Origin: an uncultured virus (IMG/VR IMGVR_UViG_3300033170_000477)
Lineage: Duplodnaviria > Heunggongvirae > Uroviricota > Caudoviricetes
DNA: 64,000 nucleotides
Strand: one strand, 5' to 3'
IMG/VR virus record: IMGVR_UViG_3300033170_000477
Below the pieces are notes generated by a model. That model saw only the letters and a program-made list of their open reading frames with translations, searched no databases and was not told where the DNA came from. Position numbers and translations under genes: made by a program. This document shows, piece by piece, positions 18,279 through 64,000 of this stretch (the first letter of the stretch is position 1; every line of letters begins with the position of its first letter).

Positions 18279-18281
18279 CGT

Positions 18282-43548: not shown

Positions 43549-45070
43549 TATTATCCACCTCCAAAGGGAGCTTAAAAATAATCTCGGTTCCTGGGCGTTC
43601 CGATCTATTCTTTGCTTTTATGGACCCACCATGTGCTTTTATAATTGTATCGCAGATGGCTAAACCAAGACCTATACCGCTTTTAACATCAGGAATTTTC
43701 ATCTGAGAAGTATAGAACATATCAAAAATATAAGGTAATTCTTCTGTTGATATTCCTGTACCTTCATCTTTTACTACAAATACTGCGGAGTTTGTATTCT
43801 CTTCTTTGATTACTAAGACACTTATTTCAGCTTTTGCTTTAGTATGTTTAATAGAATTATCTAAAAGGTTAACTAAGACCTGTTCGATGAGTTTGGCATC
43901 CATGGGTACAAAGAGCAATTCATCTGGTACACTCACAGTGACTTCGTATTCTGGTGCTCTCTGAGAAATCCGATTAACTGCACTACCTATCACTTCTTCT
44001 ACAGTTTCCATTTGCCTATTTAAGGTTAGCTTACCCTCCTGCAATCGAGTGAGATTTAAAATATTCTCTACTAGAGAGTGTAACCAGTTTGCATCATTAT
44101 GAATATTTTCTAGCAAAGGATATCGTGTATCACTGGATTCAGTCATATCCATAAGCATTTCCGCTGTACCCATAATTCCAGAAAGTGGAGTACGTAAATC
44201 GTGAGAAATTGACCGCAATAAATTTCCGCGATAACGTTCCTGTGTAGCTTCCTCACGCTCTTTGATACGTTGCTCAGAAGACATAAATCTGTCCATTGCT
44301 AAGCCTGTACTCTCTATCATAGAGTGTAATAGCTTTATCTGAGATACTGTCATTGCCTGAGCTCTTTCTTTGGGTATTCTGATAATACCTAGAATATTTT
44401 CCCTTCCATAGATTGGCCAGTCATAGAATTCAACTCCTATGTCATAGCCTGTTCGTAATCCATCTATCCTGTGTTTGAGCTCCACTATGTCATCTACTTT
44501 TCTACGCACTTGTTTTTCTGTTGTGCTCTGCTGGATAAAGGACAACTCTGGTAAACCATTACTATCGAAACAAAGGATAGCAGCATTACAATTGAAACAA
44601 TCACTTAATGCTTTTACACTTATACCCGCTATTTCATGTATATCTTTAGCATCTGTAAGATAGTTGGTAAGGTTATAAACAGCTTTTGTTTCTGCCTCTC
44701 TTTCTTTCGCAGAAAGTGCACTCTGTTTAACATGAGAAGTAAGAGTACTCGTGACAAGTGCGGTAATAGTCATAATAATAAAAGTTATAAAATAACTTGG
44801 ATCATAAACTGTAAATGTATAATAGGGTTCAGTGAAAAAAAAGTTAAAAGCAAAAGTGGCTATAAGTGAGGATAGGATGCCAAATATATATCCGTCAATA
44901 AGCCAGGAAGTCATAAGCACAGCTAACAGATAGATAATTACAATATTTGTTTCGGGAAAACCAATAAATCGAAAGGCATATCCTACAACTGAAGAGGCTG
45001 TAATTAGCAAAGCCATCAAGAAAAACTGAAACACATAATTATGTGAGTTGCCTATTCTTTGTTCAGACAA
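43541..45070 (-). CDS. KdpD-like sensor histidine kinase lacking the N-terminal KdpD/Usp domains
   Basis: 4-TM segment (AFNFFFTEPYYTF), SISHDLRTPL, NLLDN, DEGTGI, GIGLGLAI. Confidence 0.85.
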   Translation of the reverse strand: MSEQRIGNSHNYVFQFFLMALLITASSVVGYAFRFIGFPETNIVIIYLLAVLMTSWLIDGYIFGILSSLIATFAFNFFFTEPYYTFTVYDPSYFITFIIMTITALVTSTLTSHVKQSALSAKEREAETKAVYNLTNYLTDAKDIHEIAGISVKALSDCFNCNAAILCFDSNGLPELSFIQQSTTEKQVRRKVDDIVELKHRIDGLRTGYDIGVEFYDWPIYGRENILGIIRIPKERAQAMTVSQIKLLHSMIESTGLAMDRFMSSEQRIKEREEATQERYRGNLLRSISHDLRTPLSGIMGTAEMLMDMTESSDTRYPLLENIHNDANWLHSLVENILNLTRLQEGKLTLNRQMETVEEVIGSAVNRISQRAPEYEVTVSVPDELLFVPMDAKLIEQVLVNLLDNSIKHTKAKAEISVLVIKEENTNSAVFVVKDEGTGISTEELPYIFDMFYTSQMKIPDVKSGIGLGLAICDTIIKAHGGSIKAKNRSERPGTEIIFKLPLEVDNNE

Positions 45071-45258
45071 GAAATATCACCCCCGTATTTACCTGATTTT
45101 GTTCTCCCATCAATTGGCTTTTTAGCATCTTTAGGAACAAGCCATAAATTTCCTTTTTTAATTGCTCCTGATATACGACCTGTAGAGCAATAATAGTTTA
45201 TCATTCTAGCGGTAACTCCCCATCTTTCGCCAATTTCTTTGACCGTTAAATATTCCAT
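45052..45258 (-). CDS. Small HTH DNA-binding protein (excisionase-like fold)
   Basis: YLTVKEIGERWGVTARMINYYC..GRISGA.KKG..WLVP.DA.KP.DGR. Confidence 0.75.
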   Translation of the reverse strand: MEYLTVKEIGERWGVTARMINYYCSTGRISGAIKKGNLWLVPKDAKKPIDGRTKSGKYGGDISCLNKE

Positions 45259-45347
45259 TTGCTCACCACCTATTAAATGTTTTAGCAATTACTTATATTA
45301 GTATATCTCGAGATAAAGAAAAAAGCAAGATTAATATAACCAATAAC

Positions 45348-45501
45348 ATAGATATGTTCCCACAAACGATAGTCAATCTTAGATATGTTTCCAAGTACGA
45401 GCCTTGAAAAAAAAGGGGGTTGAAAAAATTTGGTTGATAGCTATCCTATCCTCTTAACGCACGTTGAGGCGGTAGTATTGATGTCAAGGGTAGATAAGTA
45501 A
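45348..45501 (+). other. Attachment-site junction with rlmD/rumA 3'-end fragments
   Basis: IDMFPQT (45348-45368), LDMFPST (45379-45399), HVEAVVLMSRVDK* (45460-45501). Confidence 0.7.
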
Positions 45502-45869
45502 GAGTGTAATAAGATAAGTAAATAAAGGCTTTCCGTGATTTGAGGTCTGGTTTTAAGCCGGAAGGATAATCACGGTTTTTTGCTTTTAGGGAAGTTATCA
45601 AAGATTGGTGAATTTGAAAAATCATCAACAAATATCGTCGATGACTAAGTGAGTTGATAAGATGGTTGGCAAAATAATAGTGAGTTGACAATGTGACTAT
45701 CAGATTGAAAGTTGAAATTGAAATATATATGCACGTGGAAGGCAATTAAAATAGCTATCCAGAAAATCCGGTGCCAATCATTAAATAAACGCATCCGTAT
45801 TTTTACGCCAATATCCACGGTGCAATTTATATCAATTTGGTATTCAAGTACCAAAAGTTAAATTAGCGA

Positions 45870-45898
45870 TTGACAAATTTGTTAAACCGTGATATTCT
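45870..45898 (+). promoter_or_regulatory. SigA-type promoter of the R-M locus
   Basis: TTGACA-17-TATTCT with TG extension. Confidence 0.65.
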
Positions 45899-45940
45899 TG
45901 ATTTATCAAATCAGCTATTGGTAAGGAGGAAAAATGAATT

Positions 45941-47560
45941 ATGACTAACGAGATTGAAAAAAACACCTTTGAATACTTAGATTTATTTAGAGGGTTTACT
46001 GAGAGTGACTCCTATCTTCCTGCTGCGCTTCTTGTGGCTGAAACAAAGGAAGAGTACTTTGACAAAAATATTTATGATGATTCAGAAGAGCGAATCTACG
46101 AGACTATGCTGACAGTTGCAGATAGGCTCGATATTATTAACCCGTTTAGAGATAAGACACAATTTACCAGAGTGTATAATGCCTATGATGTTTTTAAGGG
46201 AGAGGTCAACTGGGAATTGATTATTGCCCAGAGTGATAGAAGATATGGTGGGTACTCAGTAATTTCTAATGCTCTATCTGAAGAGTACGGCAGTCGCTTT
46301 AAACTTGACGCAGATGAGGTTCTTATTGCCGAAGGGGAAAAATTCGCTCCAAATCTAAAGAAACTAATCGATGAACATCCTGGTTGCAACTATACCATTA
46401 CAACTGAAGAAAAAATCAGTTTTCACATAATTAACAGAATTTTTGCTGGTTATAAAAATGTAAAAATATTGAATGCAAGTATATATCAATACGGTTTCAC
46501 AAACAGTCGTTACGATCTTATATTCTCTGTACCTAATTTCGGAACAAGAAATCTTGCTGAAGATGAAAATTTTATGAGTAGAGATCAAGATGCGGTAGCG
46601 CTTGAAAACCTGCTTCTTCATACAAATAATGGTGGTGAGCTTATAATCACAATGCCGGCTAGAATCACATTTGCTCATGGAAAGATTGGAGTGCTTAGGC
46701 AGTTTGTTCAACAGACTTATCGCTTAAAAGAAATTACAGAACTTCCAGAAGGTGCGTTTGAAGGAACAGGGATTAAAACTTACCTTATCGATGTAGTAAA
46801 TACCAAGCCAGGTGATGATGATGTGATAGTCCGTCGATATAAATCTGGTCCTCGTAAGAACAAACGTGATATGGCTAATAAATTTATTATCGATGAAGAA
46901 ACATTCGTTATGTTAGAGGAACTTGAGGAACTTGGTGATTGGAGTATAAATAAAATATTCTCTCAGCAAGATGAAGAGTGGATAAAATTCCAAGAATCAT
47001 CTATTCGTAAAATTGCTTTGGGAGATGTTGCTGAAGTTTTCCGAGGAAAATCAGTATCAAAAAAAGACCCAACCGGAAGTGTTGGTGTCGTTAACATCTC
47101 GAATATAGGTGATTACGATATTGATTATGATAGTCTAGATCACTTTGATGAAGAAGAACGTAAGATTTCAAACTACATTCTTAAAGAAGGTGACGTACTA
47201 ATACCTGCAAGAGGAACTGCAATTAGAACCTCTATCTTTCGCGAGCAGAGCTATCCATGCATCGCTTCATCTAACATCATTGTAATCCGACCTGAAGTAA
47301 AAATGCTTAGCAGCGTGTATTTAAAATTGTTCTTAGACAGCCCTCTTGGGCAAAAGATGATAAGTGGTGTACAACAAGGAAGTACAGTAATTAATATCAG
47401 CTATAAAGACTTGAATGCCTTGGAAATACCTGTTCCTTCAATTGAAGAACAACATATGAAGGCTGATGAATATGAAAAAGAGTTAGAAATCTACAAAGAA
47501 ACTGTTGAGGTTGCTGAAAAGCGCTGGAATAAAGTTTTAGATAAGCTACGAGAACTTTAA
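45941..47560 (+). CDS. Degenerate N6-MTase-like domain fused to a single HsdS-type TRD
   Basis: YDLIFSVPNFG in place of NPPF, ITELPEGAF..TGIKT; C-terminal LGDVAEVFRG...LEIPVPSIEEQ. Confidence 0.65.
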   Translation: MTNEIEKNTFEYLDLFRGFTESDSYLPAALLVAETKEEYFDKNIYDDSEERIYETMLTVADRLDIINPFRDKTQFTRVYNAYDVFKGEVNWELIIAQSDRRYGGYSVISNALSEEYGSRFKLDADEVLIAEGEKFAPNLKKLIDEHPGCNYTITTEEKISFHIINRIFAGYKNVKILNASIYQYGFTNSRYDLIFSVPNFGTRNLAEDENFMSRDQDAVALENLLLHTNNGGELIITMPARITFAHGKIGVLRQFVQQTYRLKEITELPEGAFEGTGIKTYLIDVVNTKPGDDDVIVRRYKSGPRKNKRDMANKFIIDEETFVMLEELEELGDWSINKIFSQQDEEWIKFQESSIRKIALGDVAEVFRGKSVSKKDPTGSVGVVNISNIGDYDIDYDSLDHFDEEERKISNYILKEGDVLIPARGTAIRTSIFREQSYPCIASSNIIVIRPEVKMLSSVYLKLFLDSPLGQKMISGVQQGSTVINISYKDLNALEIPVPSIEEQHMKADEYEKELEIYKETVEVAEKRWNKVLDKLREL

Positions 47561-47574
47561 TAGGAGGTATCATT

Positions 47575-49992
47575 ATGTTAGGAGCTATTATCGGGGATAT
47601 CGTGGGTTCCCGTTTTGAATGGAATAATAACAAGAGTAAGCAATTTGATTTATTAACTTATAAATGTAGTGTTACCGATGATTCCATAATGACTTTAGCT
47701 ATAGCTAAAGCGCTGTTAGAAAGCAAGTCGGATTATAGTGACTTATCCGAAAATGCTGTAAAATACATGCAGAATATCGGACAACACTACCCAAACTGTG
47801 GGTATGGTGGGCATTTCAGAGAATGGATATATTCTGACAATCCAAAACCATATAACAGCTATGGTAATGGGGCAGCGATGCGTGTCAGTGCATGTGGATT
47901 CGTAGCAAATACCCTGGAAGAAGTGAAACAACTATCAAAAGCTGTGACAGAAGTAACACACAATCATCCTGAGGGGATAAAGGGTGCAGAGGCAACAGCT
48001 GTTGCTATCTTCCTGGCGCGTTCTGGAAAGAATTTGCTAGAGATTCGCGACTATATAACAAAGAATTATTACCCGTTGAATTTTTCCCTTGATGAAATAC
48101 GTGATAATTATGAGTTTAATGAGAGCTGTCAGGGAACTGTTCCTCAAGCCTTGGAAGCTTTCTTCGAGTCGAAAAATTTTGAAGATGCAATTCGTAACGC
48201 CATATCAATTGGTGGCGATAGCGATACCCTTGCAGCTATTACAGGTGGTATCGCAGGAGTTTACTATGGAATACCTACAGATATTAGAAAACATGCTCTG
48301 ACCTTCCTTGACGAGCGCCTACTTAAGATTTTGGTAGAGTTTGAAAATAATTATCCATCAAAGATGGAAAAAATCAATTCAGTCGGTAGTATTGGCATCG
48401 AAAGAAATGCAGAGACCAAAGTGAAGACAGGGAATAGAAAAACTATGATGCAGTCCTCTGTAGAAATAGCAGAGAAAGAACTAATTGATTCGATTCCTAC
48501 AAATGAAGAGACGACAAGCCAGCAACTATTTAATCATCTATTCGAGGCTTGTAATATTCTGCGAGGACCAATAAACCAAGATGAGTATAAAAGTTATGTG
48601 ACTCCAATCCTCTTTTTTAAGAGAATTAGTGATGTTTATGACGAAGAAACTCAAGATGCACTTGAGCGCTCTGGTGGAGATGAGGAGTATGCTAGATTTC
48701 CCGAGAACCACAGTTTTGATATTCCTGTGGGATGCCACTGGCAAAATGTCAGGGAAGCAAGTGAAAATGTTGGTGTTGCAATCGTCAAAGCAATGAATGG
48801 TATTGAGCGTGCTAACCCAGATACTTTAAGTGGTGTGTTCAGTAGCTTTGATGATGCTAATTGGACTGACAAAACTAAACTCTCAGACGAGAGACTAAAA
48901 AATTTAATAGAACATATGTCAAAAATTAAAGTTGGTAATGCGAATTACTCAGCTGATGTTATGGGAGATAGTTATGAATTTCTGATTAAGAAATTTGCTG
49001 ATTTATCAAAAAAGAATGCTGGTGAATTTTATACCCCACGCTCCATTGTCAAACTTCTCATCATGCTTCTGGATCCAAAGATTGGTGAAACAGTCTATGA
49101 TCCAGCTTGTGGAACTGGAGGAATGCTAATAGAAGCCATACGGTACATGAAAAACGATAAAATGACGTATGGCCGAATATATGGTCAGGAGAATAATCTA
49201 TCTACATCTGCAATTGCTAGAATGAATTTGTTTTTGCATGGTGCAAAGGATTTTAAGATTACACAAGGTGATACACTGCGTTCTCCTAATTTTCTTGAGA
49301 AAGGTAAATTAAAAACTTTCAATTGCGTTGTAGCGAATCCTCCCTTTTCGTTGAAAAAATGGGGTTCACAACAATTTAGCACAGATATATATGGTCGAAA
49401 CATGTGGGGAACCCCAACTGACTCCAATGCTGATTTTGCATGGCTGCAACACATGGTGAAGTCGATGGACGAAAAAACCGGCCGTTGTGCTGTTGTTTTA
49501 CCACAAGGTGTACTATTCCGTGGGGGTAGAGAAGCAGAAATTCGCAAACAACTGATTGAATCAGACAAGCTGGAATGCATTATTACACTGGTAAGCGGCG
49601 TGTTCTATTCAACTGGAGTATCAGCTTGTATTCTTTTTCTAAACAATAACAAGAAAAATGATCATAAAGGTCGTATATGCATGATCGATGGTTCTGATAT
49701 ATTCACAGCACAACGAGCACAAAATATAATGACCGACAATGACATAGAGAAGGTCTACAATTTGTATGACGATTATAAAGATGTTATTGAAAAAGTAAAA
49801 GTGGTCACGATTCCCGAAGTGAAAGACAAGGGCTATAGTCTAGCGATCAATAATTATATTGAAAGAAAAGAACAAGAAATTACTCCTCCAGCTGAAATAA
49901 GAAAACAGTATTTTGATGCACTTGAAAAAATGATTGAGGCTGAAAAAATAATGATGGAATTATTGCTTGAAGGAGGATATGTCAATGAGTAA
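47575..49992 (+). CDS. hsdM: ADP-ribosylglycohydrolase (DraG/ARH) fused to Type I MTase subunit M1
   Basis: ARH motifs GAIIGDIVG, TDDS, GNGAAMR, GGDSDT; HsdM motifs GEFYTP, DPACGTGG, NPPF. Confidence 0.9.
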   Translation: MLGAIIGDIVGSRFEWNNNKSKQFDLLTYKCSVTDDSIMTLAIAKALLESKSDYSDLSENAVKYMQNIGQHYPNCGYGGHFREWIYSDNPKPYNSYGNGAAMRVSACGFVANTLEEVKQLSKAVTEVTHNHPEGIKGAEATAVAIFLARSGKNLLEIRDYITKNYYPLNFSLDEIRDNYEFNESCQGTVPQALEAFFESKNFEDAIRNAISIGGDSDTLAAITGGIAGVYYGIPTDIRKHALTFLDERLLKILVEFENNYPSKMEKINSVGSIGIERNAETKVKTGNRKTMMQSSVEIAEKELIDSIPTNEETTSQQLFNHLFEACNILRGPINQDEYKSYVTPILFFKRISDVYDEETQDALERSGGDEEYARFPENHSFDIPVGCHWQNVREASENVGVAIVKAMNGIERANPDTLSGVFSSFDDANWTDKTKLSDERLKNLIEHMSKIKVGNANYSADVMGDSYEFLIKKFADLSKKNAGEFYTPRSIVKLLIMLLDPKIGETVYDPACGTGGMLIEAIRYMKNDKMTYGRIYGQENNLSTSAIARMNLFLHGAKDFKITQGDTLRSPNFLEKGKLKTFNCVVANPPFSLKKWGSQQFSTDIYGRNMWGTPTDSNADFAWLQHMVKSMDEKTGRCAVVLPQGVLFRGGREAEIRKQLIESDKLECIITLVSGVFYSTGVSACILFLNNNKKNDHKGRICMIDGSDIFTAQRAQNIMTDNDIEKVYNLYDDYKDVIEKVKVVTIPEVKDKGYSLAINNYIERKEQEITPPAEIRKQYFDALEKMIEAEKIMMELLLEGGYVNE

Positions 49993-51481
49993 TCGCATTA
50001 CAATAGATGAATTGCAAACATATTTATGGGATTCAGCTGTTCTTCTTCGTTCTAGTATAGATGCAGGAGCTTATAAACAATACATTTTCCCGCTGCTTTT
50101 CTTTAAAAGAATCAGCGATGTTTATGACGAAGAGTGTCAAAAAATTCTAGAGCAATTTGGCGATGAAGAAGCCTTAGAGTTTGAAGAAAATCACCGGTTT
50201 CAGGTACCCAAAGGTGCTCATTGGAATGATGTTCGTGAAGTTTCTGAGAATGTAGGTGTTGCTATAGTAAGTGCATTTCGTAAGATCGAAAAAGCAAACG
50301 CTGATAAACTACAAGGAATTTTTGGAGATGCTGCTTGGACAAATAAGAATCGTTTGTCAGACAGACTTCTAAAAGAATTAATAGAACATTTCAGCAGTAG
50401 AACATTGTCTATTGAAAATTGTCCAGAGGACGAACTAGGACAGGGATACGAGTACCTAATCAAGAAGTTTGCCGACGATAGTGGGCATACCGCTCAAGAA
50501 TTCTATACAAATCGTACCGTAGTTCATCTTATGACTGAAATCTTGAGACCTCAGTCAGGTGAATCAATTTATGATCCAACGTGCGGTAGTGCAGGTATGC
50601 TAATCTCCGCGATAGCCTATTTGCAAAAACAAAAAAAAGAATGGCGTAATGTTGCTATTTATGGGCAGGAAATAAATGCTTTAACTTCATCGATTGGCAA
50701 AATGAACTTATTTTTGCATGGTGTGAAGGACTTTGAAATTGTAAATGGAGATACGTTAAAATCACCGGCTTTTATTGAGAAAGGAAAGTTGAAAGAATTT
50801 GACATGGTTCTTGCCAATCCTCCCTACTCTATTAGTCAGTGGGACAGAGAAGCCTTTGCTAGCGATAAATATGGACGTAATTTCCTAGGTGTTCCTCCTC
50901 AAGGTCGAGCAGATTATGCTTTTTTACAACATATTCTGAAGAGTTTGAAAGAAGACACTGGACGTTGTGCGATATTATTCCCACATGGCATATTGTTTCG
51001 TAATGAGGAAAGTAGTATGCGAGAAAAATTAGTTAGAAGCGATATGCTTGAATGTGTGATAGGTTTAGGTCCCAACCTGTTTTATAATTCACCAATGGAG
51101 GCTTGCATAATTATATGTCGTAAAAATAAGCCTGCAAACCGTCGTGGCCAGGTTTTATTTATAAATGCAGTAGATGAGGTTGAGAGAAAAAATGCACAGA
51201 GTTATCTGGAAGATAAACATATTGAGAAGATAGCATCAGCATACAACAAATATGAAACAGATAATGATTTTGCACGCGTTGTCTCAATTCGTGATATCGA
51301 AGATAACAATTTCTCGCTCAGTATTCCACTTTATGTTAAAAAGACCATGCCTGGGGCAGAAACTGACGAACGTTCTCTTCAAGAGCGTTATGAAAGTTGG
51401 AGAACACACTCGGAAATTATGAAACTTCGCTATATGAAATTAAGTGACATGATCGGAAAGGAGGATGAAAATAATGAGTGA
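49985..51481 (+). CDS. hsdM: Type I MTase subunit M2
   Basis: QEFYTN, DPTCGSAG, NPPY, PHGILFR. Confidence 0.92.
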   Translation: MSNRITIDELQTYLWDSAVLLRSSIDAGAYKQYIFPLLFFKRISDVYDEECQKILEQFGDEEALEFEENHRFQVPKGAHWNDVREVSENVGVAIVSAFRKIEKANADKLQGIFGDAAWTNKNRLSDRLLKELIEHFSSRTLSIENCPEDELGQGYEYLIKKFADDSGHTAQEFYTNRTVVHLMTEILRPQSGESIYDPTCGSAGMLISAIAYLQKQKKEWRNVAIYGQEINALTSSIGKMNLFLHGVKDFEIVNGDTLKSPAFIEKGKLKEFDMVLANPPYSISQWDREAFASDKYGRNFLGVPPQGRADYAFLQHILKSLKEDTGRCAILFPHGILFRNEESSMREKLVRSDMLECVIGLGPNLFYNSPMEACIIICRKNKPANRRGQVLFINAVDEVERKNAQSYLEDKHIEKIASAYNKYETDNDFARVVSIRDIEDNNFSLSIPLYVKKTMPGAETDERSLQERYESWRTHSEIMKLRYMKLSDMIGKEDENNE

Positions 51482-52601
51482 AGTATTCTTAGGAGAAGTT
51501 GCTAAAGAGCGAAAGGAAACTAGTAAAGAAAATAAAGGCAGGTATCCAATTGTGGGCTTAGAGCACTTGATTTCAGAAGAAATTACTCTAACAGACTGGG
51601 AAGAAAATAAGGAAAATTCTTTTACTAAGATCTTCCGAAAAGGAGATGTGCTTTTTGGACGTAGACGAGCTTATTTAAAGAAGGCTGTAGTTGCTCCTTT
51701 TGATGGCATTTGTTCCGGTGACATAACGGTAATTCAAGCTCTGCCAGATAAAATTCTACCTGAACTTTTACCTTTTATCATTCAAAATGATGCATTATTT
51801 GATTTTGCTATAGGTAAGTCAGCTGGTTCTTTATCACCCCGTGTTAAATGGGCGAATCTAAAGAACTTTAGGCTTGAGTTACCTGATTTAAAAGAACAAA
51901 GCAAGTTAGCTAGCCTATTATGGTCGATAGATAGCACTAAAAAGACCTATCAGAAGCTGATTCAAAAGACCGATGAGCTGGTCAAATCTCAATTTATCGA
52001 GATGTTTGATCAAGGAAATTGGCAAACAATCAAATTCTCTGATGCTTACACATTACAAATGGGAAAAACTCCATCACGTGCGCAGATGAAATATTGGTCT
52101 GCAAATGATTATCGATGGATATCTATTGCGGATCTGAGTTCATATGGGAAATATACAGGTGATACAAAAGAATATATTTCACAGACTGCAGTTGATGAAA
52201 CGGGTATCAAGGTTACCCCGAAAGGCACCGTAATAATGAGTTTCAAACTCACAATTGGGATAGCAGCTATTACTTCAGAGGATATATATACCAATGAAGC
52301 AATTATGGCATTCATCCCACGCCAGTCGGACATTAGTACAGATTTTCTACGTTACTATTTAAGTGTCAAAGATTGGTCTGATGAGGGAAAACAAGCTGTA
52401 AAAGGAACCACCTTAAACAAAAATTCAATAGGTAATGCTACCATCATCGTACCACCAGCAGAGCTTCAAGAGCAATTTGTGATCTTTGCTAATCAGAGCG
52501 ATAAATCAAAATTTGTAAGTGATACAGAGGTACGAGATTTTAGACTCTTGAGCAACTTGATTCGCAATTATAACAATATGAATGTCAAAGATGGAAATTA
52601 A
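51474..52601 (+). CDS. hsdS: Type I specificity subunit
   Basis: Two TRDs separated by ELVKSQFIEMF; GKTPSR; QSDKSKF. Confidence 0.9.
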   Translation: MSEVFLGEVAKERKETSKENKGRYPIVGLEHLISEEITLTDWEENKENSFTKIFRKGDVLFGRRRAYLKKAVVAPFDGICSGDITVIQALPDKILPELLPFIIQNDALFDFAIGKSAGSLSPRVKWANLKNFRLELPDLKEQSKLASLLWSIDSTKKTYQKLIQKTDELVKSQFIEMFDQGNWQTIKFSDAYTLQMGKTPSRAQMKYWSANDYRWISIADLSSYGKYTGDTKEYISQTAVDETGIKVTPKGTVIMSFKLTIGIAAITSEDIYTNEAIMAFIPRQSDISTDFLRYYLSVKDWSDEGKQAVKGTTLNKNSIGNATIIVPPAELQEQFVIFANQSDKSKFVSDTEVRDFRLLSNLIRNYNNMNVKDGN

Positions 52602-52625
52602 ACTTAATGATAGGAGGGAATATTT

Positions 52626-55535
52626 ATGTTTAACGAAGACAATACAATTGAAAAAATGGTGATCTCAACACTAACCAAAAACGGGTGGAATTTTATCTCA
52701 GCTGATGATTTACCACGGGACTTTTCGGATGTGATGGTGGAACCGATGGTTAAAGAAGCGCTAATTCGTTTGAATCCTGAAATAGCGGAAGAACCATCTC
52801 GTGCTGATGAAGTCATTTATAAATTACGTGCAATTATACTTTCAGTGCAGCATCATAACCTAATAACTCAAAATGAACTTTTTCAAAGAATGATTTTTGA
52901 AGAAAATTCATATCCTTTTGGCAAAAATGGCCGAATGATACCGATCCGTTTTTTTGGCACAATGAAAAAAGAAGATTTAGTACTTAATGAATATGTCGTT
53001 ACTAATCAATGGATTTATCCTCAGGCCGAAGGTGGAAAGAGACTTGATATTGTTTTGCTGGTTAATGGTTTCCCAATTTCAATCGGAGAATTAAAGACCC
53101 CGGTGCGCAATGCTATAACCTGGTTAGACGCTGCAAGTGATATTTCATCGTATGAAAAGAGTATTCCTCAGATGTTTGTAACTAATGTATTTAATTTTGC
53201 TACTGAGGGTAGATGCTATCGCTATGGTTCGGTTGGCATGCCAGTTAATATGTGGGGCCCATGGCATACTCCTGACCATAAGTCAGAGGGTAGCCTCGCT
53301 GATGTTAAAGTTAGCATAGCTGATATGATTACTCCTGAGAAGGTTATGGATATTTTTCAGTTTTTCACTCTCTTTGCTACAGATAAGAAACATGTTAAAT
53401 ACAAAATAATTTGCCGTTACCAGCAGTATGAAGGTGCTAACCTTATTGTACAACGTGTTATTGCGGGCTATCCAAAGCAAGGTCTTATCTGGCACTTTCA
53501 GGGTTCTGGTAAATCGTTGCTAATGGTATTTGCAGCACAAAAAATTCGCATGATCCCCGAACTTAAGAATCCTACTGTGGTAATAGTTGATGATCGACTT
53601 GATCTTGAAACTCAGATAACTGCAACATTTAATGCTTCGGATATTCCAAACCTAGTATCACTTGCGACTAAGGAAGAAGTTGAAAACTTTTTTAAGCAAG
53701 ATATTCGTAAAATTGCAATAACGACTATTTTCCGATTTGGTGATGTCGAAGATGTTCTTAATCTTAGAGATAACATAATCATTATGGTTGATGAAGCACA
53801 TAGAACTCAAGAAGGTGACCTCGGTGAAAGGATGCGTGCAGCACTTCCAAATGCTTTCTTCTTTGGACTTACCGGTACTCCAATTAATCGTATTGATAAG
53901 AATACTTTCCGTACATTTGGTGCAACGGAAGATAAGAGCGGATATTTGAGTCGATATACTTTCTCGGATTCCATCAGAGACAATGCAACTCTACCCTTGA
54001 ACTTTGAGCCAGTTCCAGTCGAGCTTCATGTTGATAAGGATAAAATAGATACAGAATTTGATGCCTTAACTGAGACGCTCTCAGATGCAGATCGTGCTGA
54101 GCTTTCAAAACGTGTAAATATGAAAGCCATCATGTATGATCCAAAACGTATACACAAGGTTTGCGAACACATTGTAAAACATTATAAAGAAAAAATAGAG
54201 CCTAACGGGTATAAAGGACAGATCGTTGTATACGACCGTGAGTGCTGTCTTAAGTATAAGGAAGAGCTAGATAAGCTGCTCCCTCATGAAGCAACAACGA
54301 TAGTAATGGATACCAATAACGATAAGGAAGATCGATATAGAAAATTTCGTCGCAGCCGTGATGAAGAAGCAAGAGTCCTTGATCATTTCCGTGATAAGAA
54401 TAACCCTCTTAAGTTAGTTATTGTTACATCAAAGCTATTAACGGGTTTTGACGCGCCAATTCTTCAAGCAATGTATTTAGATAAGCCAATGAAGGACCAT
54501 AACCTTCTGCAAGCCATCTGCCGTACAAACCGTACTTTTGATGAAGGTAAAACCCATGGATTAATTGTAGACTACATTGGTATTTTTGATAATGTTGCTA
54601 AGGCGTTGGACTTTGATGAAGCTAGCATGAAAAAAGTTATCACAAATATTGAAGAAGTCAAGAAGCAGGTTCCTGCACTTCTCAGAAAATGCCTAAGTTA
54701 CTTTATGGGCGTTGACCGTACCGTAGTAGGTTGGGAAGGTTTACTTGCAGCTCAGGAGTGTATTCCAACAAATAAAGATAAAGATGCATTTGCTGCAGAT
54801 TATCATGTTCTAAATAGAGCATGGGATGCTCTGTCCCCTGATCCATTTCTTGATAAGTACAAGTTTGACTATGTATGGCTAACAAAAGTCTACGAGTCAG
54901 TGAAACCCACGGATAATCGCGGTGCTCTCGTTTGGGCTGCTCTTGGCGCCAAAACAATGGAATTAGTTCACTCTAATATCGAAGTTGGCAGGGTTCATGA
55001 TGATATGGATATTTTAACGCTTGATGCGGATCTAATTGACGAATTTATTCGTAAGCAGAAAGATGTTAAAAAGACAACTATGAAGGTAGAAATAGACTTA
55101 GTTGCCAAAATTCGCGAACATTCTAACGATCCAAAGTTTATTAAGCTGGGAGAGAAGCTCGAAGAGCTTCGTGAACGCCACGAACAAGGGTTAATTAATA
55201 GTATTGAGTTCTTGAAGCTCCTACTTGAACTTGCAAAAGAAGCTGCTCAAGCAGAAAAGGAAGTTGTCCCGGAAGAAGAAATTGATCGTGGGAAAGCAGC
55301 ACTCACAGAACTCTTTAAAGGTGCTAAGAACGACAAAACACCCATCATTGTTGAACGCATTGTTGCTGATATTGATGACATTGTAAAGATTGTACGATTC
55401 GATGGATGGCAAAGAACAACTACCGGAAAAAATGAAGTGAAAAAGGCACTTCGTAGTGTTATCTGGATTAAATACAAGATTAAAGACAAAGAAGTTTTCG
55501 ATAAAGCTTATAGCTACATCGAGCAATATTATTAG
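52626..55535 (+). CDS. hsdR: Type I restriction subunit
   Basis: D.VLLVNG.P...ELK nuclease, WHFQGSGKS, DEAHR, GLTGTP, QAICRTNR. Confidence 0.95.
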   Translation: MFNEDNTIEKMVISTLTKNGWNFISADDLPRDFSDVMVEPMVKEALIRLNPEIAEEPSRADEVIYKLRAIILSVQHHNLITQNELFQRMIFEENSYPFGKNGRMIPIRFFGTMKKEDLVLNEYVVTNQWIYPQAEGGKRLDIVLLVNGFPISIGELKTPVRNAITWLDAASDISSYEKSIPQMFVTNVFNFATEGRCYRYGSVGMPVNMWGPWHTPDHKSEGSLADVKVSIADMITPEKVMDIFQFFTLFATDKKHVKYKIICRYQQYEGANLIVQRVIAGYPKQGLIWHFQGSGKSLLMVFAAQKIRMIPELKNPTVVIVDDRLDLETQITATFNASDIPNLVSLATKEEVENFFKQDIRKIAITTIFRFGDVEDVLNLRDNIIIMVDEAHRTQEGDLGERMRAALPNAFFFGLTGTPINRIDKNTFRTFGATEDKSGYLSRYTFSDSIRDNATLPLNFEPVPVELHVDKDKIDTEFDALTETLSDADRAELSKRVNMKAIMYDPKRIHKVCEHIVKHYKEKIEPNGYKGQIVVYDRECCLKYKEELDKLLPHEATTIVMDTNNDKEDRYRKFRRSRDEEARVLDHFRDKNNPLKLVIVTSKLLTGFDAPILQAMYLDKPMKDHNLLQAICRTNRTFDEGKTHGLIVDYIGIFDNVAKALDFDEASMKKVITNIEEVKKQVPALLRKCLSYFMGVDRTVVGWEGLLAAQECIPTNKDKDAFAADYHVLNRAWDALSPDPFLDKYKFDYVWLTKVYESVKPTDNRGALVWAALGAKTMELVHSNIEVGRVHDDMDILTLDADLIDEFIRKQKDVKKTTMKVEIDLVAKIREHSNDPKFIKLGEKLEELRERHEQGLINSIEFLKLLLELAKEAAQAEKEVVPEEEIDRGKAALTELFKGAKNDKTPIIVERIVADIDDIVKIVRFDGWQRTTTGKNEVKKALRSVIWIKYKIKDKEVFDKAYSYIEQYY

Positions 55536-55549
55536 TAGGAGGTCTGCCT

Positions 55550-57463
55550 ATGAAACAATATGCATCGTTTGAAAAGTATCTTGAAGACAAATATTATAAT
55601 GATATTCACCGTGCTATCACCGGCCTCATATTTAAAAGAGGCCGGAATAACGGGTTTTATTCTTATACAGTTTTAGATCCTTCTTACTTTCAGGTAGAGG
55701 ATATACATATAAAAACTGTATCTTTCCACTCTACAGATGGAAGCAGGATTATTTTCAATGCAGCAGTTGAGGCAGATGTTATCCTAAAAGGAATGGGAAA
55801 GAGAGATTATGATGCTGATATAAAAAACCCTTGGTACACGGTCTCTTTTACTGGTTATTTAAGTGATGGTCTTAATATGGTTACCATTACGGATGTTGAT
55901 GACTATTTCGCCGATAAGTTTGATAAGAATACAACATTATCAAAATATTTGATTCCTTACCTTTATTCAGAGGACTTAGAAAAGGAAGCGGAAAAATTCC
56001 TTTACAAATACTGTAGACAAGCGCTAAATGAACCTATGCCTATTCCCCTCGATGAACTCATGTTTAATATGGGACTAGTGCTTTATGAGGCCCCGCTCCC
56101 AGATAATATATTTGGCAAAACTTATTTTGCAGAATCAACAGTTGATATATTCAACGAGGAATATGAAGTAGTAAAACAGACCGTTGAGCCAGGAACAATC
56201 CTTTTAAATCCGAACATTTTCTTCATGCGGAATATAGGATCTCGTAATAATACAGTTGTACATGAATGTGTGCATTGGGACCGTCATGATAAGTTTTTTG
56301 AAATGCAGAAGTTGTTAAATAGTAATCTGACTTCTTTAACATGTGAGATTACTGAGCAAAGAGGGCTTAAGAATAATGGGATTGAAGGTGCGCTTCAGTG
56401 GATGGAATGGCAAGCTAATGCTTTGACTCCTCGCATTCTACTACCTGCAAACACCACAAGAAAAAAACTAAAAGAAATATTGCTACGTCTACATATTGAA
56501 AATTCAGAGAGATCTGATTCAGATATTATGGAAGAGGCAATCGAAGAGTTGGCAGATTTTTTTGCAGTTTCAAAGTTTGCAGCAAAACTCCGCGCCATCG
56601 AACTTGGCTTTTCGCAGGCACAAGGGGTTTGGAATTATCTAAACGGCACCTATTTACCTAGTTTTTCATTTAAGGCAACTGCTCTCAATAAGGATGAAAG
56701 TTATATCATCGATATAAGAAATGCCTGTTATGAGGCAAGTTTTGATGTCAGCTTTAAAGCTAACCTTGAGAAAGGCGACTTTATTTATGTTGACTATATG
56801 TACTGTATCAATGATGAAAAATACGTAGAAAAATCTGCAGATGGGAAATGCGCCCTAACATCTTATGCTAGACAGCATGTCGATGAATGTTGTATTAAAT
56901 TTAAGCAAAAATTTAAAATAACAAAAACACAAGGCGATGCCTATTATACTCAATGTTCCCTTTGCAGAGATATAGATGCATCTTCTTATTGTGAATGTAC
57001 TTACATTGAAGATGAAGATAATCAAGACGTAGTACAGCGTGCAATAGAATTGAAAAAACTAAAAGAAGAAGGAGAACGCATTACAGGAATATTACGATCA
57101 CTACCGATGTCTTTTTCAGGGACTCTGGATGCCCATATGAAGCGTCTTAAAAAAGAAGATGGTACAAAGATGACTAATCTTGAGTTAGCGCTTAGAACAG
57201 GATTAAGTGATCGATATATTCAAGACCTTCGCAAAGAAGAAAAAAATGTAAGTTATGAAACTGTCTGTGCCATTTGTATTGGGCTTCACCTACATCCCAA
57301 ATTCAGTAACGATCTCATTAAGAAATCACGCAATGATTATCCATTAACAGAAGAAGGTTACTTTGGTCAATTTCTCATCGAACATCACTATATGGAAACA
57401 CTAGTTTTATGTAATGAAAAGTTAAGAGAAATGGGCTATAAAACGTGGGGCAAGGATTTATAA
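55550..57463 (+). CDS. ImmA/IrrE-family metallopeptidase with C-terminal HTH
   Basis: VVHECVH (HExxH), EWQANAL..RILLP; HTH MTNLELALRTGLSDRYIQDLR. Confidence 0.82.
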   Translation: MKQYASFEKYLEDKYYNDIHRAITGLIFKRGRNNGFYSYTVLDPSYFQVEDIHIKTVSFHSTDGSRIIFNAAVEADVILKGMGKRDYDADIKNPWYTVSFTGYLSDGLNMVTITDVDDYFADKFDKNTTLSKYLIPYLYSEDLEKEAEKFLYKYCRQALNEPMPIPLDELMFNMGLVLYEAPLPDNIFGKTYFAESTVDIFNEEYEVVKQTVEPGTILLNPNIFFMRNIGSRNNTVVHECVHWDRHDKFFEMQKLLNSNLTSLTCEITEQRGLKNNGIEGALQWMEWQANALTPRILLPANTTRKKLKEILLRLHIENSERSDSDIMEEAIEELADFFAVSKFAAKLRAIELGFSQAQGVWNYLNGTYLPSFSFKATALNKDESYIIDIRNACYEASFDVSFKANLEKGDFIYVDYMYCINDEKYVEKSADGKCALTSYARQHVDECCIKFKQKFKITKTQGDAYYTQCSLCRDIDASSYCECTYIEDEDNQDVVQRAIELKKLKEEGERITGILRSLPMSFSGTLDAHMKRLKKEDGTKMTNLELALRTGLSDRYIQDLRKEEKNVSYETVCAICIGLHLHPKFSNDLIKKSRNDYPLTEEGYFGQFLIEHHYMETLVLCNEKLREMGYKTWGKDL

Positions 57464-57484
57464 AAAAGTAAAAAATAATTAGAC

Positions 57485-57596
57485 CAAAACCGGAACTCTT
57501 ACTTCTGGTTTTGATTACGTAATTGCAAGGCTTTATGACCAGTAATGGTTGTAAAGCCTTTTTTTTACGCTCAAAAACCGGAACTCGCAGTTCTGC
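57485..57596 (+). promoter_or_regulatory. Two operator-like sites flanking a terminator
   Basis: AAAACCGGAACTC at 57486 and 57574, each in a GAAC-N5-(G/C)TTC dyad; terminator AAGGCTTTATGACC/GGTTGTAAAGCCTT plus T tract at 57527-57566. Confidence 0.55.
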
Positions 57597-57656
57597 GAAG
57601 GAAATCTTGTTTCAAATTATGATGTTAATAGAAGCTGAAAACTTCTAATAAACCAG

Positions 57657-57856
57657 TCTCAAAGTCCGAGATGCGCATTAGGACGGCGGGATGCATAGAG
57701 AGTTCAGAACACAGTGATAGAGACTGTGTTTGGAATGAAGATGCACCCACCGTAATTTCGTGCGCTCTTTTTTAGGACAAGCGAAGTTTGTGGTCATCTT
57801 ATCCGCAGGCTCTTTTGCATTCCGCCACCCATTACTGGGACGGAAAGGAATGCAAA
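57657..57856 (+). ncRNA. Putative structured leader RNA (copy 2)
   Basis: Homolog of 341-540; 11-bp stem TTTTGCATTCC/GGAATGCAAAA covers the RBS region and start A. Confidence 0.6.
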
Positions 57857-58399
57857 ATGAAAATACGAGTTTTATATGAAGACAACATCAAAAACGGTCA
57901 CAAGAATTACACCACAATTGAAATTCCAGATGGAGATTACAGCGTCATGCTGGATATCGACTATGCGCAACGTCTTGAAGAAGCAAAGCCTGAAAAGAAG
58001 GCGGAGGTGAAACGCTGCGAGACTGTCCAGGAAATGTTCGACCTCATGAACAACAAGGAATACAACCAATGGCGCCGCTACCATAGGCATCTTGGTAATC
58101 TCAAGACACCTTATCGAAAAGATGATGAGGTTGAAATAGATGTCATGGATACTTTCGCTGATAACTCTCAGGAGATAGAACGCAATCACCAAGATGAGTA
58201 TGAATCTGTCTGCCAATGGATACGTACTGCTCTTGTTAAAAAACAGGATTGGGCAGATATGTTTATCGCAGTACGTATTGACGGCATGTCGATTCGAGAA
58301 TATGCCAGTTCCATCGGTGTAAGTGAAAACAACATTACTCAGAAGTTAAAGCGAGCTACACAAAAATTAAGAAAAGAAATTGAAAACCGTCAGATTTGA
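57857..58399 (+). CDS. Sigma-like regulator (copy 2)
   Basis: Highly similar to 541-1089. Confidence 0.7.
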   Translation: MKIRVLYEDNIKNGHKNYTTIEIPDGDYSVMLDIDYAQRLEEAKPEKKAEVKRCETVQEMFDLMNNKEYNQWRRYHRHLGNLKTPYRKDDEVEIDVMDTFADNSQEIERNHQDEYESVCQWIRTALVKKQDWADMFIAVRIDGMSIREYASSIGVSENNITQKLKRATQKLRKEIENRQI

Positions 58400-58428
58400 C
58401 CTTCTCCCAAGGCTACTAGGTAGGAGGT
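58387..58428 (+). promoter_or_regulatory. Conserved motif TCAGATTT-N13-GGCTACTAGGTAG (copy 4)
   Basis: Same position relative to sigma-like gene as copy 1. Confidence 0.65.
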
Positions 58429-58463
58429 CAAGACCTCCAAAAAAACACAAGGAGGTAATTCTA

Positions 58464-59132
58464 ATGAGAGAATTAATACCAAAAGATCAATATGGTGTGT
58501 TTGCCGACACCAAGGATACGGCAAGAGTGGATAGTTTGTTTGTGGCAGAGTTTTTTGAAAAACGTCATGACCATGTTATTCGAGATATTCGAAAAATCAC
58601 TGACCCCAAATCTGGGTTGAGTGAAGTTTTCATTCATTCCAACTTTAAAGCTGATTCTTATAAGGACAGCACAGGCAGAAGACTACCCTGTTATGCCATG
58701 ACTCGTGACGGCTTCACTATGTTAGTCATGGGATATACGGGACAAAAAGCTATGAAGTTCAAAGAGTTATACATCAAACGTTTTAATGAAATGGAGCAAT
58801 TTATTAAGACGCTTGTTTCAGCCCGTAAAGAGTTCCCTTTGCTGACAGACAACATTAAGCTGCTCCATGAAAATCCCAAACCATATCACTTCAGTAATGA
58901 ATGCGACATGATTAACCGCATTGTTACCGGGATGTCTGCAAAGCAATTTAGGATAGCCAACGGTATCGAAAAAGGTAAGAGCATCCGTCCCTACCTATCC
59001 GATGAGCAGATTACGATGCTTGAAACTTTGCAGAAAGTGGATGTGGGTTTGTTAGTAGCTGTTCCGGACTATCAGCAGCGAAAGCGTCATCTGGAATGGT
59101 ACAAGTTGAAGATGGAAGAAAACGCAAATTAG
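58464..59132 (+). CDS. Rha family protein (copy 2)
   Basis: Homolog of 1154-1816. Confidence 0.9.
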   Translation: MRELIPKDQYGVFADTKDTARVDSLFVAEFFEKRHDHVIRDIRKITDPKSGLSEVFIHSNFKADSYKDSTGRRLPCYAMTRDGFTMLVMGYTGQKAMKFKELYIKRFNEMEQFIKTLVSARKEFPLLTDNIKLLHENPKPYHFSNECDMINRIVTGMSAKQFRIANGIEKGKSIRPYLSDEQITMLETLQKVDVGLLVAVPDYQQRKRHLEWYKLKMEENAN

Positions 59133-59145
59133 GAGGGTAATTATT

Positions 59146-59367
59146 ATGTTTTATGTGAAAGAAAAATTGAACGATACCACGGCGGTATCCATTGAAATAA
59201 CAGATGAGAATGTGTTTTGTCATTGTCCTATGTGTGGTACTGAGGTGTCGGTAGACATTGCAGAGATTTTAAGTGACAGAGAGAGTGACCTATTTAGCAC
59301 TGCAGTATTTTGTGATGCATGTGGTAAGAAGGTTAGATCTGGAGGCAGACATTATGAACATAAATAA
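59146..59367 (+). CDS. Small Cys-rich phage protein (copy 2)
   Basis: Homolog of 1831-2052. Confidence 0.7.
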   Translation: MFYVKEKLNDTTAVSIEITDENVFCHCPMCGTEVSVDIAEILSDRESDLFSTAVFCDACGKKVRSGGRHYEHK

Positions 59368-59788
59368 ATTCAATGCAGAAGGGTATCATGACCCAACTCC
59401 CCATAAAGCACTTAGCAATATAGCCCGTGAGGAAAAGGCAGCAGCAAAAGCTGCCTTTAAACCCCTTGTCTATATTTGCTCTCCTTTTAGTGGCGATATC
59501 GAAAACAACAATAAGCACACACGAGCATTTTGCCGTTTTGCTTTAGATAAGGGCAATATCCCGCTTGCTCCTCACCTTCTATTTCCACAGTTTATGGATG
59601 ACAGCAAAGAGAAAGAGCGTGACCTCGCTATTTTCATGGATATTATCCTGATGGGAAAATGCCAAGAGGTCTGGGTTCTAGGTGATGTGATTTCAAGAGG
59701 CATGAGTATTGAAATTGAAAAAGCAAAGAAACGCAGACAGCCGGTTAGATACTTTAATAAAGATTTTGAGGAGGTAGAGTCTCTATGA
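59354..59788 (+). CDS. DUF4406-like protein (copy 2)
   Basis: Homolog of 2039-2470. Confidence 0.7.
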   Translation: MNINKFNAEGYHDPTPHKALSNIAREEKAAAKAAFKPLVYICSPFSGDIENNNKHTRAFCRFALDKGNIPLAPHLLFPQFMDDSKEKERDLAIFMDIILMGKCQEVWVLGDVISRGMSIEIEKAKKRRQPVRYFNKDFEEVESL

Positions 59789-62142: not shown

Positions 62143-62366
62143 GGTCGTTCCTTGTTCCTTAGTTGTTCCTTATGCTTGTTCTCTTAAAAACCCAGTCATT
62201 ACCGACATTTTGGCTTTACTGGAATGAGTGGAACAAGAGTTTTACTACTTAGTAATAAATTAATAAATAGTAGTAGTAAGGCATCGTGAGCGTGTGTATG
62301 CGCGCGTATAGGAAAAAACGTTAAAAGTTGTGCTTGTTGTTCCTGATGAATTGTTGGAGGTCATTT

Positions 62367-63981: not shown

Positions 63982-64000
63982 CAGAACCTTATCAAGATTT

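Follow-up and report, generated by a model that had tools for sequence, protein, structure and literature searches.

We identified an ADP-ribosylhydrolase (ARH) domain joined in frame to a methyltransferase of a Type I restriction-modification (R-M) system in 64,000 nucleotides of DNA from an uncultured virus (IMG/VR record IMGVR_UViG_3300033170_000477), the whole of which is called the window below. The fused protein, ARH-M1 (P0001), consists of a domain of the ARH/DraG fold, a linker and a complete HsdM subunit (M1), and is encoded by the second gene of a six-gene operon (Table 1). The fusion is real and recurs widely; its ARH domain is most likely an active hydrolase, and we tentatively propose that it may erase ADP-ribose placed on the restriction complex by transferases of invading elements.

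The ARH-M1 fusion, its recurrence and its operon

The open reading frame (ORF) of ARH-M1 has AGGAGG 7 nt 5′ of its ATG, and the preceding gene stops 14 nt before that codon. Pfam assigned ADP_ribosyl_GH to residues 1-233 (E 1.5e-39; 136.8 bits, curated cut-off 26.2), HsdM_N to residues 320-448 (E 3.5e-24) and N6_Mtase to residues 459-768 (E 2.1e-97), and the translation carries GAIIGD at 3-8, TDDS at 34-37, GNGAAMR at 97-103 and GGDSDT at 213-218. The ORF list, Pfam and the translation alike confirm the initial annotation of the window, made from the letters alone, which had described one 805-aa frame with ARH motifs, then a linker, then a complete HsdM. Mean column conservation was 0.57 in the linker, compared with 0.81-0.91 in the domains.

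An independent metagenome DNA contig (X13 record 1) covers positions 47400-49155 with two substitutions and no insertion or deletion, spanning the ARH-HsdM junction, and no sequencing run matching the ARH-M1 gene displayed an insertion or deletion. Contigs from RNA libraries of three studies, a kind of contig that can hold DNA, cover parts of the gene as well, one of them (X15 record 10, 48284-48685) bridging the junction. Searching the ARH part against proteins of 442-1409 aa at E<=0.001 gave at least 5000 matches among at least 7999 scored candidates; 119 of the 120 best long relatives carry both ARH and N6_Mtase, mostly in proteins of 805-806 aa, and the source names among these 120 include Listeria innocua, Anaerosphaera, Lachnospiraceae, Lysinibacillus, Dehalococcoides and the Bacillus cereus group. 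Databases name the fusion 'N-6 DNA methylase' or 'type I restriction enzyme M protein'. Seen from the methylase side, the M1 core has longer relatives that are fusions of the methylase and specificity subunits: Methylase_S is present in 119 of the best 120, and an ADP-ribose eraser in none of them.

A genome survey with one genome per species yielded 179 stretches encoding a relative, from which 79 loci were kept. The fused ORF is present in 58 of these and measures 800-826 aa, with one gene truncated where its contig stops and another bearing a late stop codon; the remaining 21 encode an ARH-less M1 of 475-540 aa. Carriers belong to Bacillota, Verrucomicrobiota, Synergistota, Bacteroidota and Mycoplasmatota and, among archaea, to Methanomicrobium and a Methanomethylophilaceae archaeon. 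IMG/VR contributed 19 loci, 17 of them with ARH, and queries with standalone ARH proteins added 85 further loci, comprising 74 fused genes, seven running off the contig and four standalone genes. Altogether 142 uninterrupted fused genes (125 distinct proteins) were collected from genomes, viral contigs and metagenomes of several bacterial phyla and two archaeal lineages. Since nearly all of the best long relatives share the fusion, most loci are fused and an independent contig spans the junction, the fusion is not a frameshift artefact, nor is it unique to this assembly, the alternative that the initial annotation had allowed for. Among plasmids, 970 PLSDB records match the HsdM part and none covers at least 80% of the query, so that at this setting the fusion was not found there.

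The operon itself belongs to a known type. Morgan et al. (2016), in the accessible part of PMC5100572, describe a Type I subgroup that has a pair of similar methylase genes and produces N4-methylcytosine (m4C) and N6-methyladenine (m6A), the upstream M1 with NPPF making m6A and the downstream M2 with NPPY, adjoining hsdS, making m4C. In the window, M1 reads ANPPFS and M2 reads ANPPYS, and the M1 core is 48% identical to M2 over 450 aa. NPPF is found in M1 at all 79 related genome loci, and NPPY in M2 at all 77 loci that reach it, the two other loci ending before M2 so that the match there is M1 itself. Both hsdS and hsdR are present in the window locus, and across related loci the N-terminal half of HsdS, with its target recognition domain (TRD), is conserved whereas the C-terminal half is variable, as in PacII-type systems. 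Given the two similar hsdM genes, the NPPF/NPPY order, the position of M2 next to hsdS and the hsdR gene in the same operon, the window operon is, by its sequence features, an ordinary PacII-type member, which explains the two hsdM genes but not the ARH on M1. P0001 (220.4 bits) and M2 (208.2 bits) do not reach the HsdM equivalog TIGR00497 (cut-off 242.75) but pass Pfam HsdM_N and N6_Mtase and match PADLOC MTase_I (E 1e-137 to 1e-216), and are therefore HsdM-type subunits of a divergent subgroup. In such a system M1 would methylate adenine and M2 cytosine within a heteromeric M1-M2-S methylase, to which HsdR would add ATP-driven cleavage of unmodified DNA.

Two features set the window apart from PacII-type operons: M1 bears a 315-aa N-terminal extension of ARH plus linker, and the operon has a gene for a dead methylase with half an S subunit (S1) in front and an M78-peptidase/helix-turn-helix (HTH) gene (P0122) behind. 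Neither 'ADP-ribos' nor 'glycohydrolase' occurs in PMC5100572. An intact hsdM-hsdM-hsdS-hsdR operon had been recognised in the initial annotation, and the neighbours of the fusion are indeed M2, HsdS and HsdR, with an accessory gene on each side; both hsdM genes stand as reported, but the PacII-type m4C/m6A subgroup, the dispensability of ARH (see below) and the two accessory genes had been missed.

DNA identity of 97-99% to four loci in other taxa (L001, L002, L004 and L005) begins sharply at window position 45456-45460 and continues through the operon, indicating that the cassette moves horizontally. The shared mobile unit, from 45456 to beyond 57652, contains only the six operon genes, and cassettes of different phyla and domains are 70-99% identical. 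At L002, a large serine recombinase gene (6140-7894) ends exactly at the left edge of the shared DNA, and in the window an HTH_17 excisionase-like gene lies just outside this edge (45052-45288, minus strand). The cassette may ride on, or occupy the attachment site of, serine-recombinase elements.

Conservation and loss of the ARH domain, and a possible internal start of M1

The motifs of the window ARH (GD...E, [ST]DD, TH and GGDxDT, defined in part from PMC9503650 and PMC8120803) align with those of ARH3 and Lmo0067. Among 59 fusions, T128, H129, N98, R103 and T218 are invariant (59/59); D8, D35 and D36 are absent only from the truncated sequence (58/59); D215 and D217 are likewise present in 58, and E15 in at least 90%. 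Over the metal-binding and catalytic residues as a whole, 57-59 of the 59 sequences agree. Decay was seen in single copies: L018:10001-12436, from a metagenome-assembled genome of Akkermansiaceae, has asparagine at both positions of the ARH metal site (D215N and D217N), and L007:10001-12415 has a stop at codon 767, within M1.

The ratio of non-synonymous to synonymous substitution rates (dN/dS) was calculated among 55 complete genes for pairs with 0.05<dS<1.5. The median was 0.083 for ARH and 0.042 for the M1 core, each over 49 pairs, and the linker, with 45 pairs, gave 0.129; the non-synonymous distances of ARH and M1 correlated with r = 0.70 over 1485 pairs, indicating that ARH is under purifying selection and mostly co-inherited with M1. 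Because every metal-binding and catalytic residue is kept and purifying selection acts on the domain, ARH is most likely an active hydrolase. It is distant from all characterised members of the fold (best PDB match E 2.6e-15; relatives Lmo0067, ARH3, MJ1187 and DraG), reaching 63.9 bits against the DraG equivalog TIGR02662 (cut-off 337.05) and 37.9 bits against the Tri1 equivalog NF041672 (cut-off 490). With DraG, Tri1, ARH1/ARH3 and Lmo0067 (PDB 8ZA7) it shares the Pfam family and the aligned motifs; it differs from them in its short form of ~260 aa, in its fusion to a DNA methyltransferase and in lacking a partner ADP-ribosyltransferase (ART). The name 'Lmo0067' retrieved no paper from the literature searched.

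The ARH domain is an optional part of the system. A quick maximum-likelihood tree of M1 cores, with SH-aLRT support and 81 rows including one M2 outgroup, shows ARH-bearing and ARH-less M1 intermingled, well-supported branches forcing at least five changes and parsimony giving nine. Locus L033 (9914-11629), nested among ARH-bearing loci, has undergone a clean deletion of ARH and the proximal linker: its DNA matches that of L012 (9901-12499) until just before the ARH start and again from within the linker, and its M1 starts at the linker's own Met-Met. This locus is direct evidence of secondary ARH loss. ARH is dispensable for the R-M core and has been deleted repeatedly, with the rest of the system left intact.

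Of the 125 distinct fusions, 115 have an in-frame ATG 10-40 codons ahead of the M1 core, with a Shine-Dalgarno-like word upstream in 81 and full GGAGG in 68 of the 125. The position of this ATG is that at which ARH-less M1 proteins begin. The window linker has ATG-ATG at 48445-48450 (M291 and M292), preceded only by the weak word AGGGAA. Since the start codon and its upstream word are kept exactly where ARH-less M1 begins, the fusion probably arose by read-through of an upstream ARH gene into M1, and the linker ATG would be either a relic or a still-used start giving an ARH-less M1 isoform.

ARH also exists as a separate gene. Standalone ARH proteins (261-289 aa, 74-88% identity) occur on contigs of up to 205 kb. 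At L109 (269-2700), a standalone ARH gene is preceded by an S1 gene that shares 99% identity with the window copy in its N-domain, showing that S1 travels with ARH even where ARH is not fused; a small membrane-protein gene follows in place of M1, and the membrane protein had no match in the viral contigs searched. At L179:1515-3193, the standalone ARH gene adjoins a PAD_porph gene (arginine/agmatine deiminase-type).

Possible substrates and roles of the tethered ARH domain

A representative library at 50% identity holds 10891 ARH relatives at E<=0.001. Pfam was run on 85 longer proteins among the top 150 relatives, short ones and P0236-P0273 being left out. The fusion with HsdM accounts for two of the 85 (P0124 and the partial P0150), which fits one family of single origin. 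Elsewhere ARH (47-75% identity) is joined to DUF6508, SseB, GNAT, HD_4, DUF1810, DUF4298, flavodoxin, patatin and protein kinases, and further to RNase_T, a TnsA-like nuclease, a RecA C-terminal domain, a second ARH and HTH domains; many partners match no family. When 47 ARH fusions were compared with PADLOC, six matched defence families (clade identity 55-62%), namely P0130 (BnzB), P0137 and P0138 (PDC-M09A), P0136 (DEDDh), and P0181 and P0224 (PD-T4-6/mad6-like kinases), which suggests that ARH may be a swappable head on several defence families. The Bunzi-like BnzB protein P0130, known here by its PADLOC match, resembles ARH-M1 in having the same ARH clade (59% identity) as the N-terminal head of a defence protein, but its partner is a membrane protein and not a methyltransferase. 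Standalone ARH at 43-64% identity was also found in Porphyromonas and Bacteroides phages and in very large uncultured phages; in a Porphyromonas phage the gene lies beside an integrase and a regulator.

We searched for a transferase that ARH might counteract. No ART family was detected among the 61 ORFs of the window (Pfam at E<=1e-3 or 1e-5; PHROGs), which upholds the initial annotation on this point, nor among 15 ORFs from inserts between hsdS and hsdR of four related loci (Pfam). ART-PolyVal (PF18760) was present in none of five fusion-carrying genomes, and in none of 14 control genomes either. Two operon proteins were considered as hidden ARTs and rejected, S1 (P0121) since it combines a methylase-like domain with an Esub1-like TRD, and P0122 since it combines an M78 peptidase with an HTH.

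The reading that we favour, with a confidence short of even, is that the tethered ARH strips off ADP-ribose which transferases of invaders have attached to the Hsd complex of this PacII-type system. It would remove ADP-ribose from a macromolecule at the site where the complex works, the most probable substrates being Hsd subunits, or proteins beside them, ADP-ribosylated by transferases that phages and conjugative elements inject or express early, such as T4 Alt, the ART domains of polyvalent proteins, or AcrIF11, which acts on CRISPR. The system would thereby repair itself and remain active, an anti-anti-restriction by erasure and not an abortive infection. We prefer an invader-made adduct because no cognate ART was found in the window or in the insert ORFs scanned; since the cassette crosses phyla, it cannot depend on a host partner, and the same head on unrelated defence proteins points to a generic protective role, against one tied to DNA methylation. 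A host eraser is plausible in the light of three sources, each as far as its accessible text goes: PMC5512222 describes polyvalent proteins whose ARTs are injected, ART-less host systems centred on ADP-ribosylglycohydrolases (ARG) are predicted to counter viral ARTs in section 3.8 of PMC9503650 (Iyer et al. 2022), and the AcrIF11 authors regard host erasers of AcrIF11-type modification as conceivable, an open possibility (bioRxiv 10.1101/2024.08.26.609590). The initial annotation had likewise suggested a built-in eraser, an idea that would fit the conserved active site, the purifying selection and the occurrence of the ARH clade on other defence proteins; its variant in which ARH counters DNA masking has become the weaker part.

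Several observations weigh against an eraser that serves restriction. ARH has been lost repeatedly, on the quick tree at least five times, as the clean deletion at L033 and the D215N/D217N copy at L018 illustrate, so any benefit of ARH is conditional. Judging by the conserved ribosome-binding site and ATG inside the linker, a large share of M1 may be translated without ARH. Several partners of the clade (GNAT, flavodoxin, SseB, HD_4, DUF1810 and DUF6508) have no clear defence role, and the ARH clade could serve general ADP-ribose or NAD metabolism. Finally, no ART targeting Type I R-M is named in the literature searched.

Known systems offer partial parallels. The ARG-centred systems of Iyer et al. 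(2022), according to the accessible text of PMC9503650, share with the window an ARH/ARG in a conflict-type locus without its own transferase, presumed to act on invader adducts; they differ in being built on Nudix or WYL regulators, phosphatases, chaperones or ARPP, whereas no Nudix or WYL regulator, coupled phosphatase, chaperone or ARPP was found among the six operon proteins. None of the whole words 'restriction-modification', 'R-M', 'methylase' and 'HsdM' occurs in that paper. In the RRDM island of enteropathogenic Escherichia coli (EPEC), as described in the accessible part of PMC12255303, an ADP-ribose module, DarTG, is also joined to a Type I operon that is headed by a regulator gene and has a gene for a metallopeptidase after hsdR (M48 in RRDM, M78 in the window). 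There, a complete DarT ART and the DarG macrodomain are encoded as separate genes between hsdS and hsdR, whereas the window has an eraser alone, of a different fold and fused to HsdM. PrrC, PARIS, retrons, Ronin 'decoy immunity' and EcoR22I (accessible part of bioRxiv 10.1101/2023.04.06.535777) are further accessories that guard restriction from phage anti-restriction, but they respond by cell killing or arrest, whereas ARH would repair the complex; no toxin-like effector was found among the proteins of the window operon.

A broader version of the proposal, which we hold to be doubtful, is an 'armoured' Type I cassette with add-ons that would each sense or defeat anti-restriction: ARH would erase the ADP-ribose left by injected transferases, S1 would be a decoy or platform for ARH and P0122 would switch the operon on. 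ARH would then be a general, swappable eraser head bolted onto unrelated defence proteins such as Type I M subunits, Bunzi-like BnzB, PDC-M09A and defence kinases. If true, it would amount to a general strategy in which immunity proteins carry their own repair enzyme against covalent sabotage.

Alternatively, ARH might act on nucleic acid, as in the DNA-masking variant of the initial annotation: it would clear ADP-ribose from the ends or bases of host or incoming DNA (or of RNA) and so let the complex read, methylate or cleave its sites. The domain is anchored to an enzyme that binds DNA and flips bases. DarTG modules are embedded in Type I R-M operons (PMC8883491 and PMC12255303), and ARH-like enzymes remove phosphate-end ADP-ribose from DNA and RNA (PMC11833690), as far as the accessible parts of these papers report. 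The same part of PMC11833690, however, has base-linked guanosine ADP-ribose reversed only by NADAR enzymes and not by an ARH-like enzyme, whose action was confined to phosphate-end adducts, and the reviews, in their accessible text, give thymidine-linked reversal to macrodomains such as DarG and report no ARH that reverses a base adduct. As the same ARH clade also sits on a membrane protein (BnzB-like) and on kinases, which handle no DNA, and no phage is said to mask its DNA with ADP-ribose in the literature searched, we consider a nucleic-acid substrate unlikely.

A soluble ADP-ribose derivative is another candidate substrate, be it a signalling nucleotide, O-acyl-ADP-ribose or a product of NAD-based defence, whose hydrolysis would couple restriction to signalling or simply clean up. 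The great promiscuity of the clade, with its thousands of relatives, its fusions to HD_4, GNAT, flavodoxin, DUF1810 and a second ARH, which suit small-molecule metabolism, and the standalone ARH copies in phages all speak for such chemistry. Yet Iyer et al. take phyletic patterns to mean that ARG domains prefer macromolecular adducts (accessible text of PMC9503650), the operon lacks a signal generator or sensor (no TIR, SIR2, SLOG or Nudix), a NUDIX gene occurs in one related locus only (L036), and tethering to a DNA-bound complex brings no obvious gain for a diffusible substrate. This role, too, seems improbable to us.

It is rather improbable that ARH is a tolerated passenger, an upstream gene that lost its stop codon and adds nothing to restriction, with M1 made mainly from its old start. 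The in-frame linker ATG and its GGAGG at the start site of ARH-less M1, the repeated ARH loss, the close standalone ARH relatives and the L109 copy beside S1 without M1 would all agree with a passenger. The intact frame in 142 genes, their near-constant length, the low dN/dS, the conserved catalytic residues and the correlated ARH-M1 divergence disagree with it, as neutral read-through would decay. This alternative bears on the link of ARH to restriction, not on whether ARH has a function.

ARH could also be half of an endogenous switch resembling DraT/DraG, in which a host ART silences R-M, for example to relieve restriction once DNA is damaged or a new host is entered, and ARH reactivates it. 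Type I systems need restriction alleviation on entering an unmethylated genome. DraG, the founding member of the fold, works in this manner (accessible part of PMC8120803). We regard a switch as distinctly unlikely here: no ART was found in the operon, the window or the 15 insert ORFs of the four related operons, a cassette that crosses phyla and domains at such identity cannot rely on a host-specific partner, and ARH scores far below the DraG equivalog cut-off. Least probable is that ARH serves as antidote to an ART toxin encoded in another part of its mobile element, the two forming a pair like Tre1/Tri1 or DarT/DarG and the fusion to M1 being a chance effect of neighbourhood; antitoxins of the ARH and macro types are well documented for ART toxins (PMC8120803 and PMC9503650) and R-M operons often host toxin-antitoxin pairs (PMC12255303), all in the accessible parts of these papers, but no ART family was met in the window or the insert ORFs examined, the Tri1 equivalog is far out of reach, and the shared mobile unit holds nothing besides the six genes described.

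In the full-text literature searched, a scope outside which subscription journals and REBASE lie, we found no description of an ARH-HsdM fusion. What appears to be new is the eraser domain on a PacII-type Type I system, the PacII-type two-methylase core and the ARH fold being already known. Covalent sabotage of immunity by phage and plasmid enzymes is now established, AcrIF11 ADP-ribosylating the CRISPR surveillance complex, and T7 kinase phosphorylates many defences (accessible part of PMC13645617). The fusion would offer a directly testable case of the host 'eraser' idea, previously predicted only for other ARG-centred loci. Even if the proposed erasure of invader-made ADP-ribose proves wrong, the fusion still marks a link between ADP-ribose chemistry and well-studied restriction enzymes, and thousands of database entries named only 'N-6 DNA methylase' are to be read differently.

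Operon genes, accessory neighbours and flanking DNA

Table 1. Features of the ARH-M1 operon, with positions in the window
Feature	Position	Strand	Description
Promoter-like site	45870..45898	+	TTGACA-17-TATTCT with TG; pattern match only
S1 (P0121, 539 aa)	45941..47560	+	degenerate methyltransferase-like N-domain, one TRD, dimerisation helix
ARH-M1 fusion (P0001)	47575..49992	+	single 805-aa ORF, ATG start
ARH/DraG-fold ADP-ribosylhydrolase domain	47575..48354	+	residues 1-260; PF03747; E15, T34-D35-D36, T128-H129, D215/D217/T218
Linker	48355..48519	+	residues 261-315, ~55 aa, poorly conserved, in-frame ATG-ATG
M1 core	48520..49992	+	residues 316-805; HsdM_N + N6_Mtase; motif I DPACGTGG, motif IV NPPF
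M2, second HsdM (P0123)	49985..51481	+	HsdM_N + N6_Mtase, motif IV NPPY
HsdS (378 aa)	51465..52601	+	two TRDs
HsdR (969 aa)	52626..55535	+	TIGR00348 482.7 bits (cut-off 284.55); Pfam HSDR_N, SWI2_SNF2, T1R_D3-like
P0122 (637 aa)	55550..57463	+	HExxH (HECVH) M78 peptidase + C-terminal XRE-type HTH
Terminator-like hairpin	57527..57560	+	15 pairs then T-run, closes operon; pattern match only

The six genes are co-directional, with gaps of 0-24 nt or overlaps. The promoter-like site falls in a stretch of ~480 bp upstream that is conserved with the operon in other taxa, and a palindrome (45870-45885) overlaps its -35 element. Rfam gave nothing at E<=0.1 in window positions 45000-58000, and an ORF on the minus strand at 45446-45745 was set aside as spurious in appearance, its translation being of low complexity. 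For M2, the likely start is the ATG at 49985, which is preceded by AGGAGG and overlaps the M1 stop; the ORF list uses a TTG at 49967.

S1 gave a Pfam match to Methylase_S at residues 357-508 and only a faint N6_Mtase match in its N-domain (E 0.0016), and its residues 353-536 match Esub1 (PDB 8VSQ, E 1.2e-36). Among loci with at least 2 kb of upstream sequence, S1 lies upstream of 37 of 64 ARH-bearing loci versus one of 20 ARH-less loci (L080 and L089 dropped as duplicates), and it precedes 59 of 97 distinct fusions, both counts ignoring shared ancestry.

P0122 matches phrog_4031 over its full length (E 1.3e-164), and its matches to capP and HTH_3 are weak. In its nearest Atlas clusters, Peptidase_M78 and HTH_3/HTH_26 are found on 11-98% of members where listed, the 98% being HTH_26 alone in one cluster and the other figures under half. 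To judge from these matches, P0122 is a peptidase-regulator of the ImmA/IrrE type and not a transferase. Its homologues stand behind the operon in 25 of 46 ARH-bearing versus one of seven ARH-less loci with enough downstream sequence. A distant relative of the M1 core, P0365, the only one of the 120 best longer relatives with Peptidase_M78, combines HsdM, HsdS and Peptidase_M78 in one 1207-aa protein. This triple fusion and the recurrence of P0122 behind hsdR hint that the M78 peptidase may be functionally tied to Type I methylases.

At fourteen loci, including L001 (7333-10190), L036 and L079, hsdS and hsdR are separated by an insert of 1.8-4.0 kb that is absent from the window copy. Pfam was run on 15 ORFs from four of these loci, and in three of the four the insert carries a tyrosine recombinase and extra hsdS genes, as in phase-variable specificity shufflons. 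The insert at L073 (15180-17221) instead holds Mrr_cat and Fic genes, without a recombinase or an extra hsdS, and that of L036 has the NUDIX gene (18096-18554) just before hsdR.

Two prophages of the same type flank the operon region in the window (445-39129 and 57788-64000), both with Rha, DUF7768, VapE-like and SNF2 genes. In the first, these are joined by TerL, portal, capsid and PolA genes, by two large serine recombinases and by a row of genes for a SAM synthetase (9040-10209), an N6/N4 DNA methylase (10199-11434) and an amidoligase-like protein (11478-12230), which looks like an anti-restriction or DNA-modification set.

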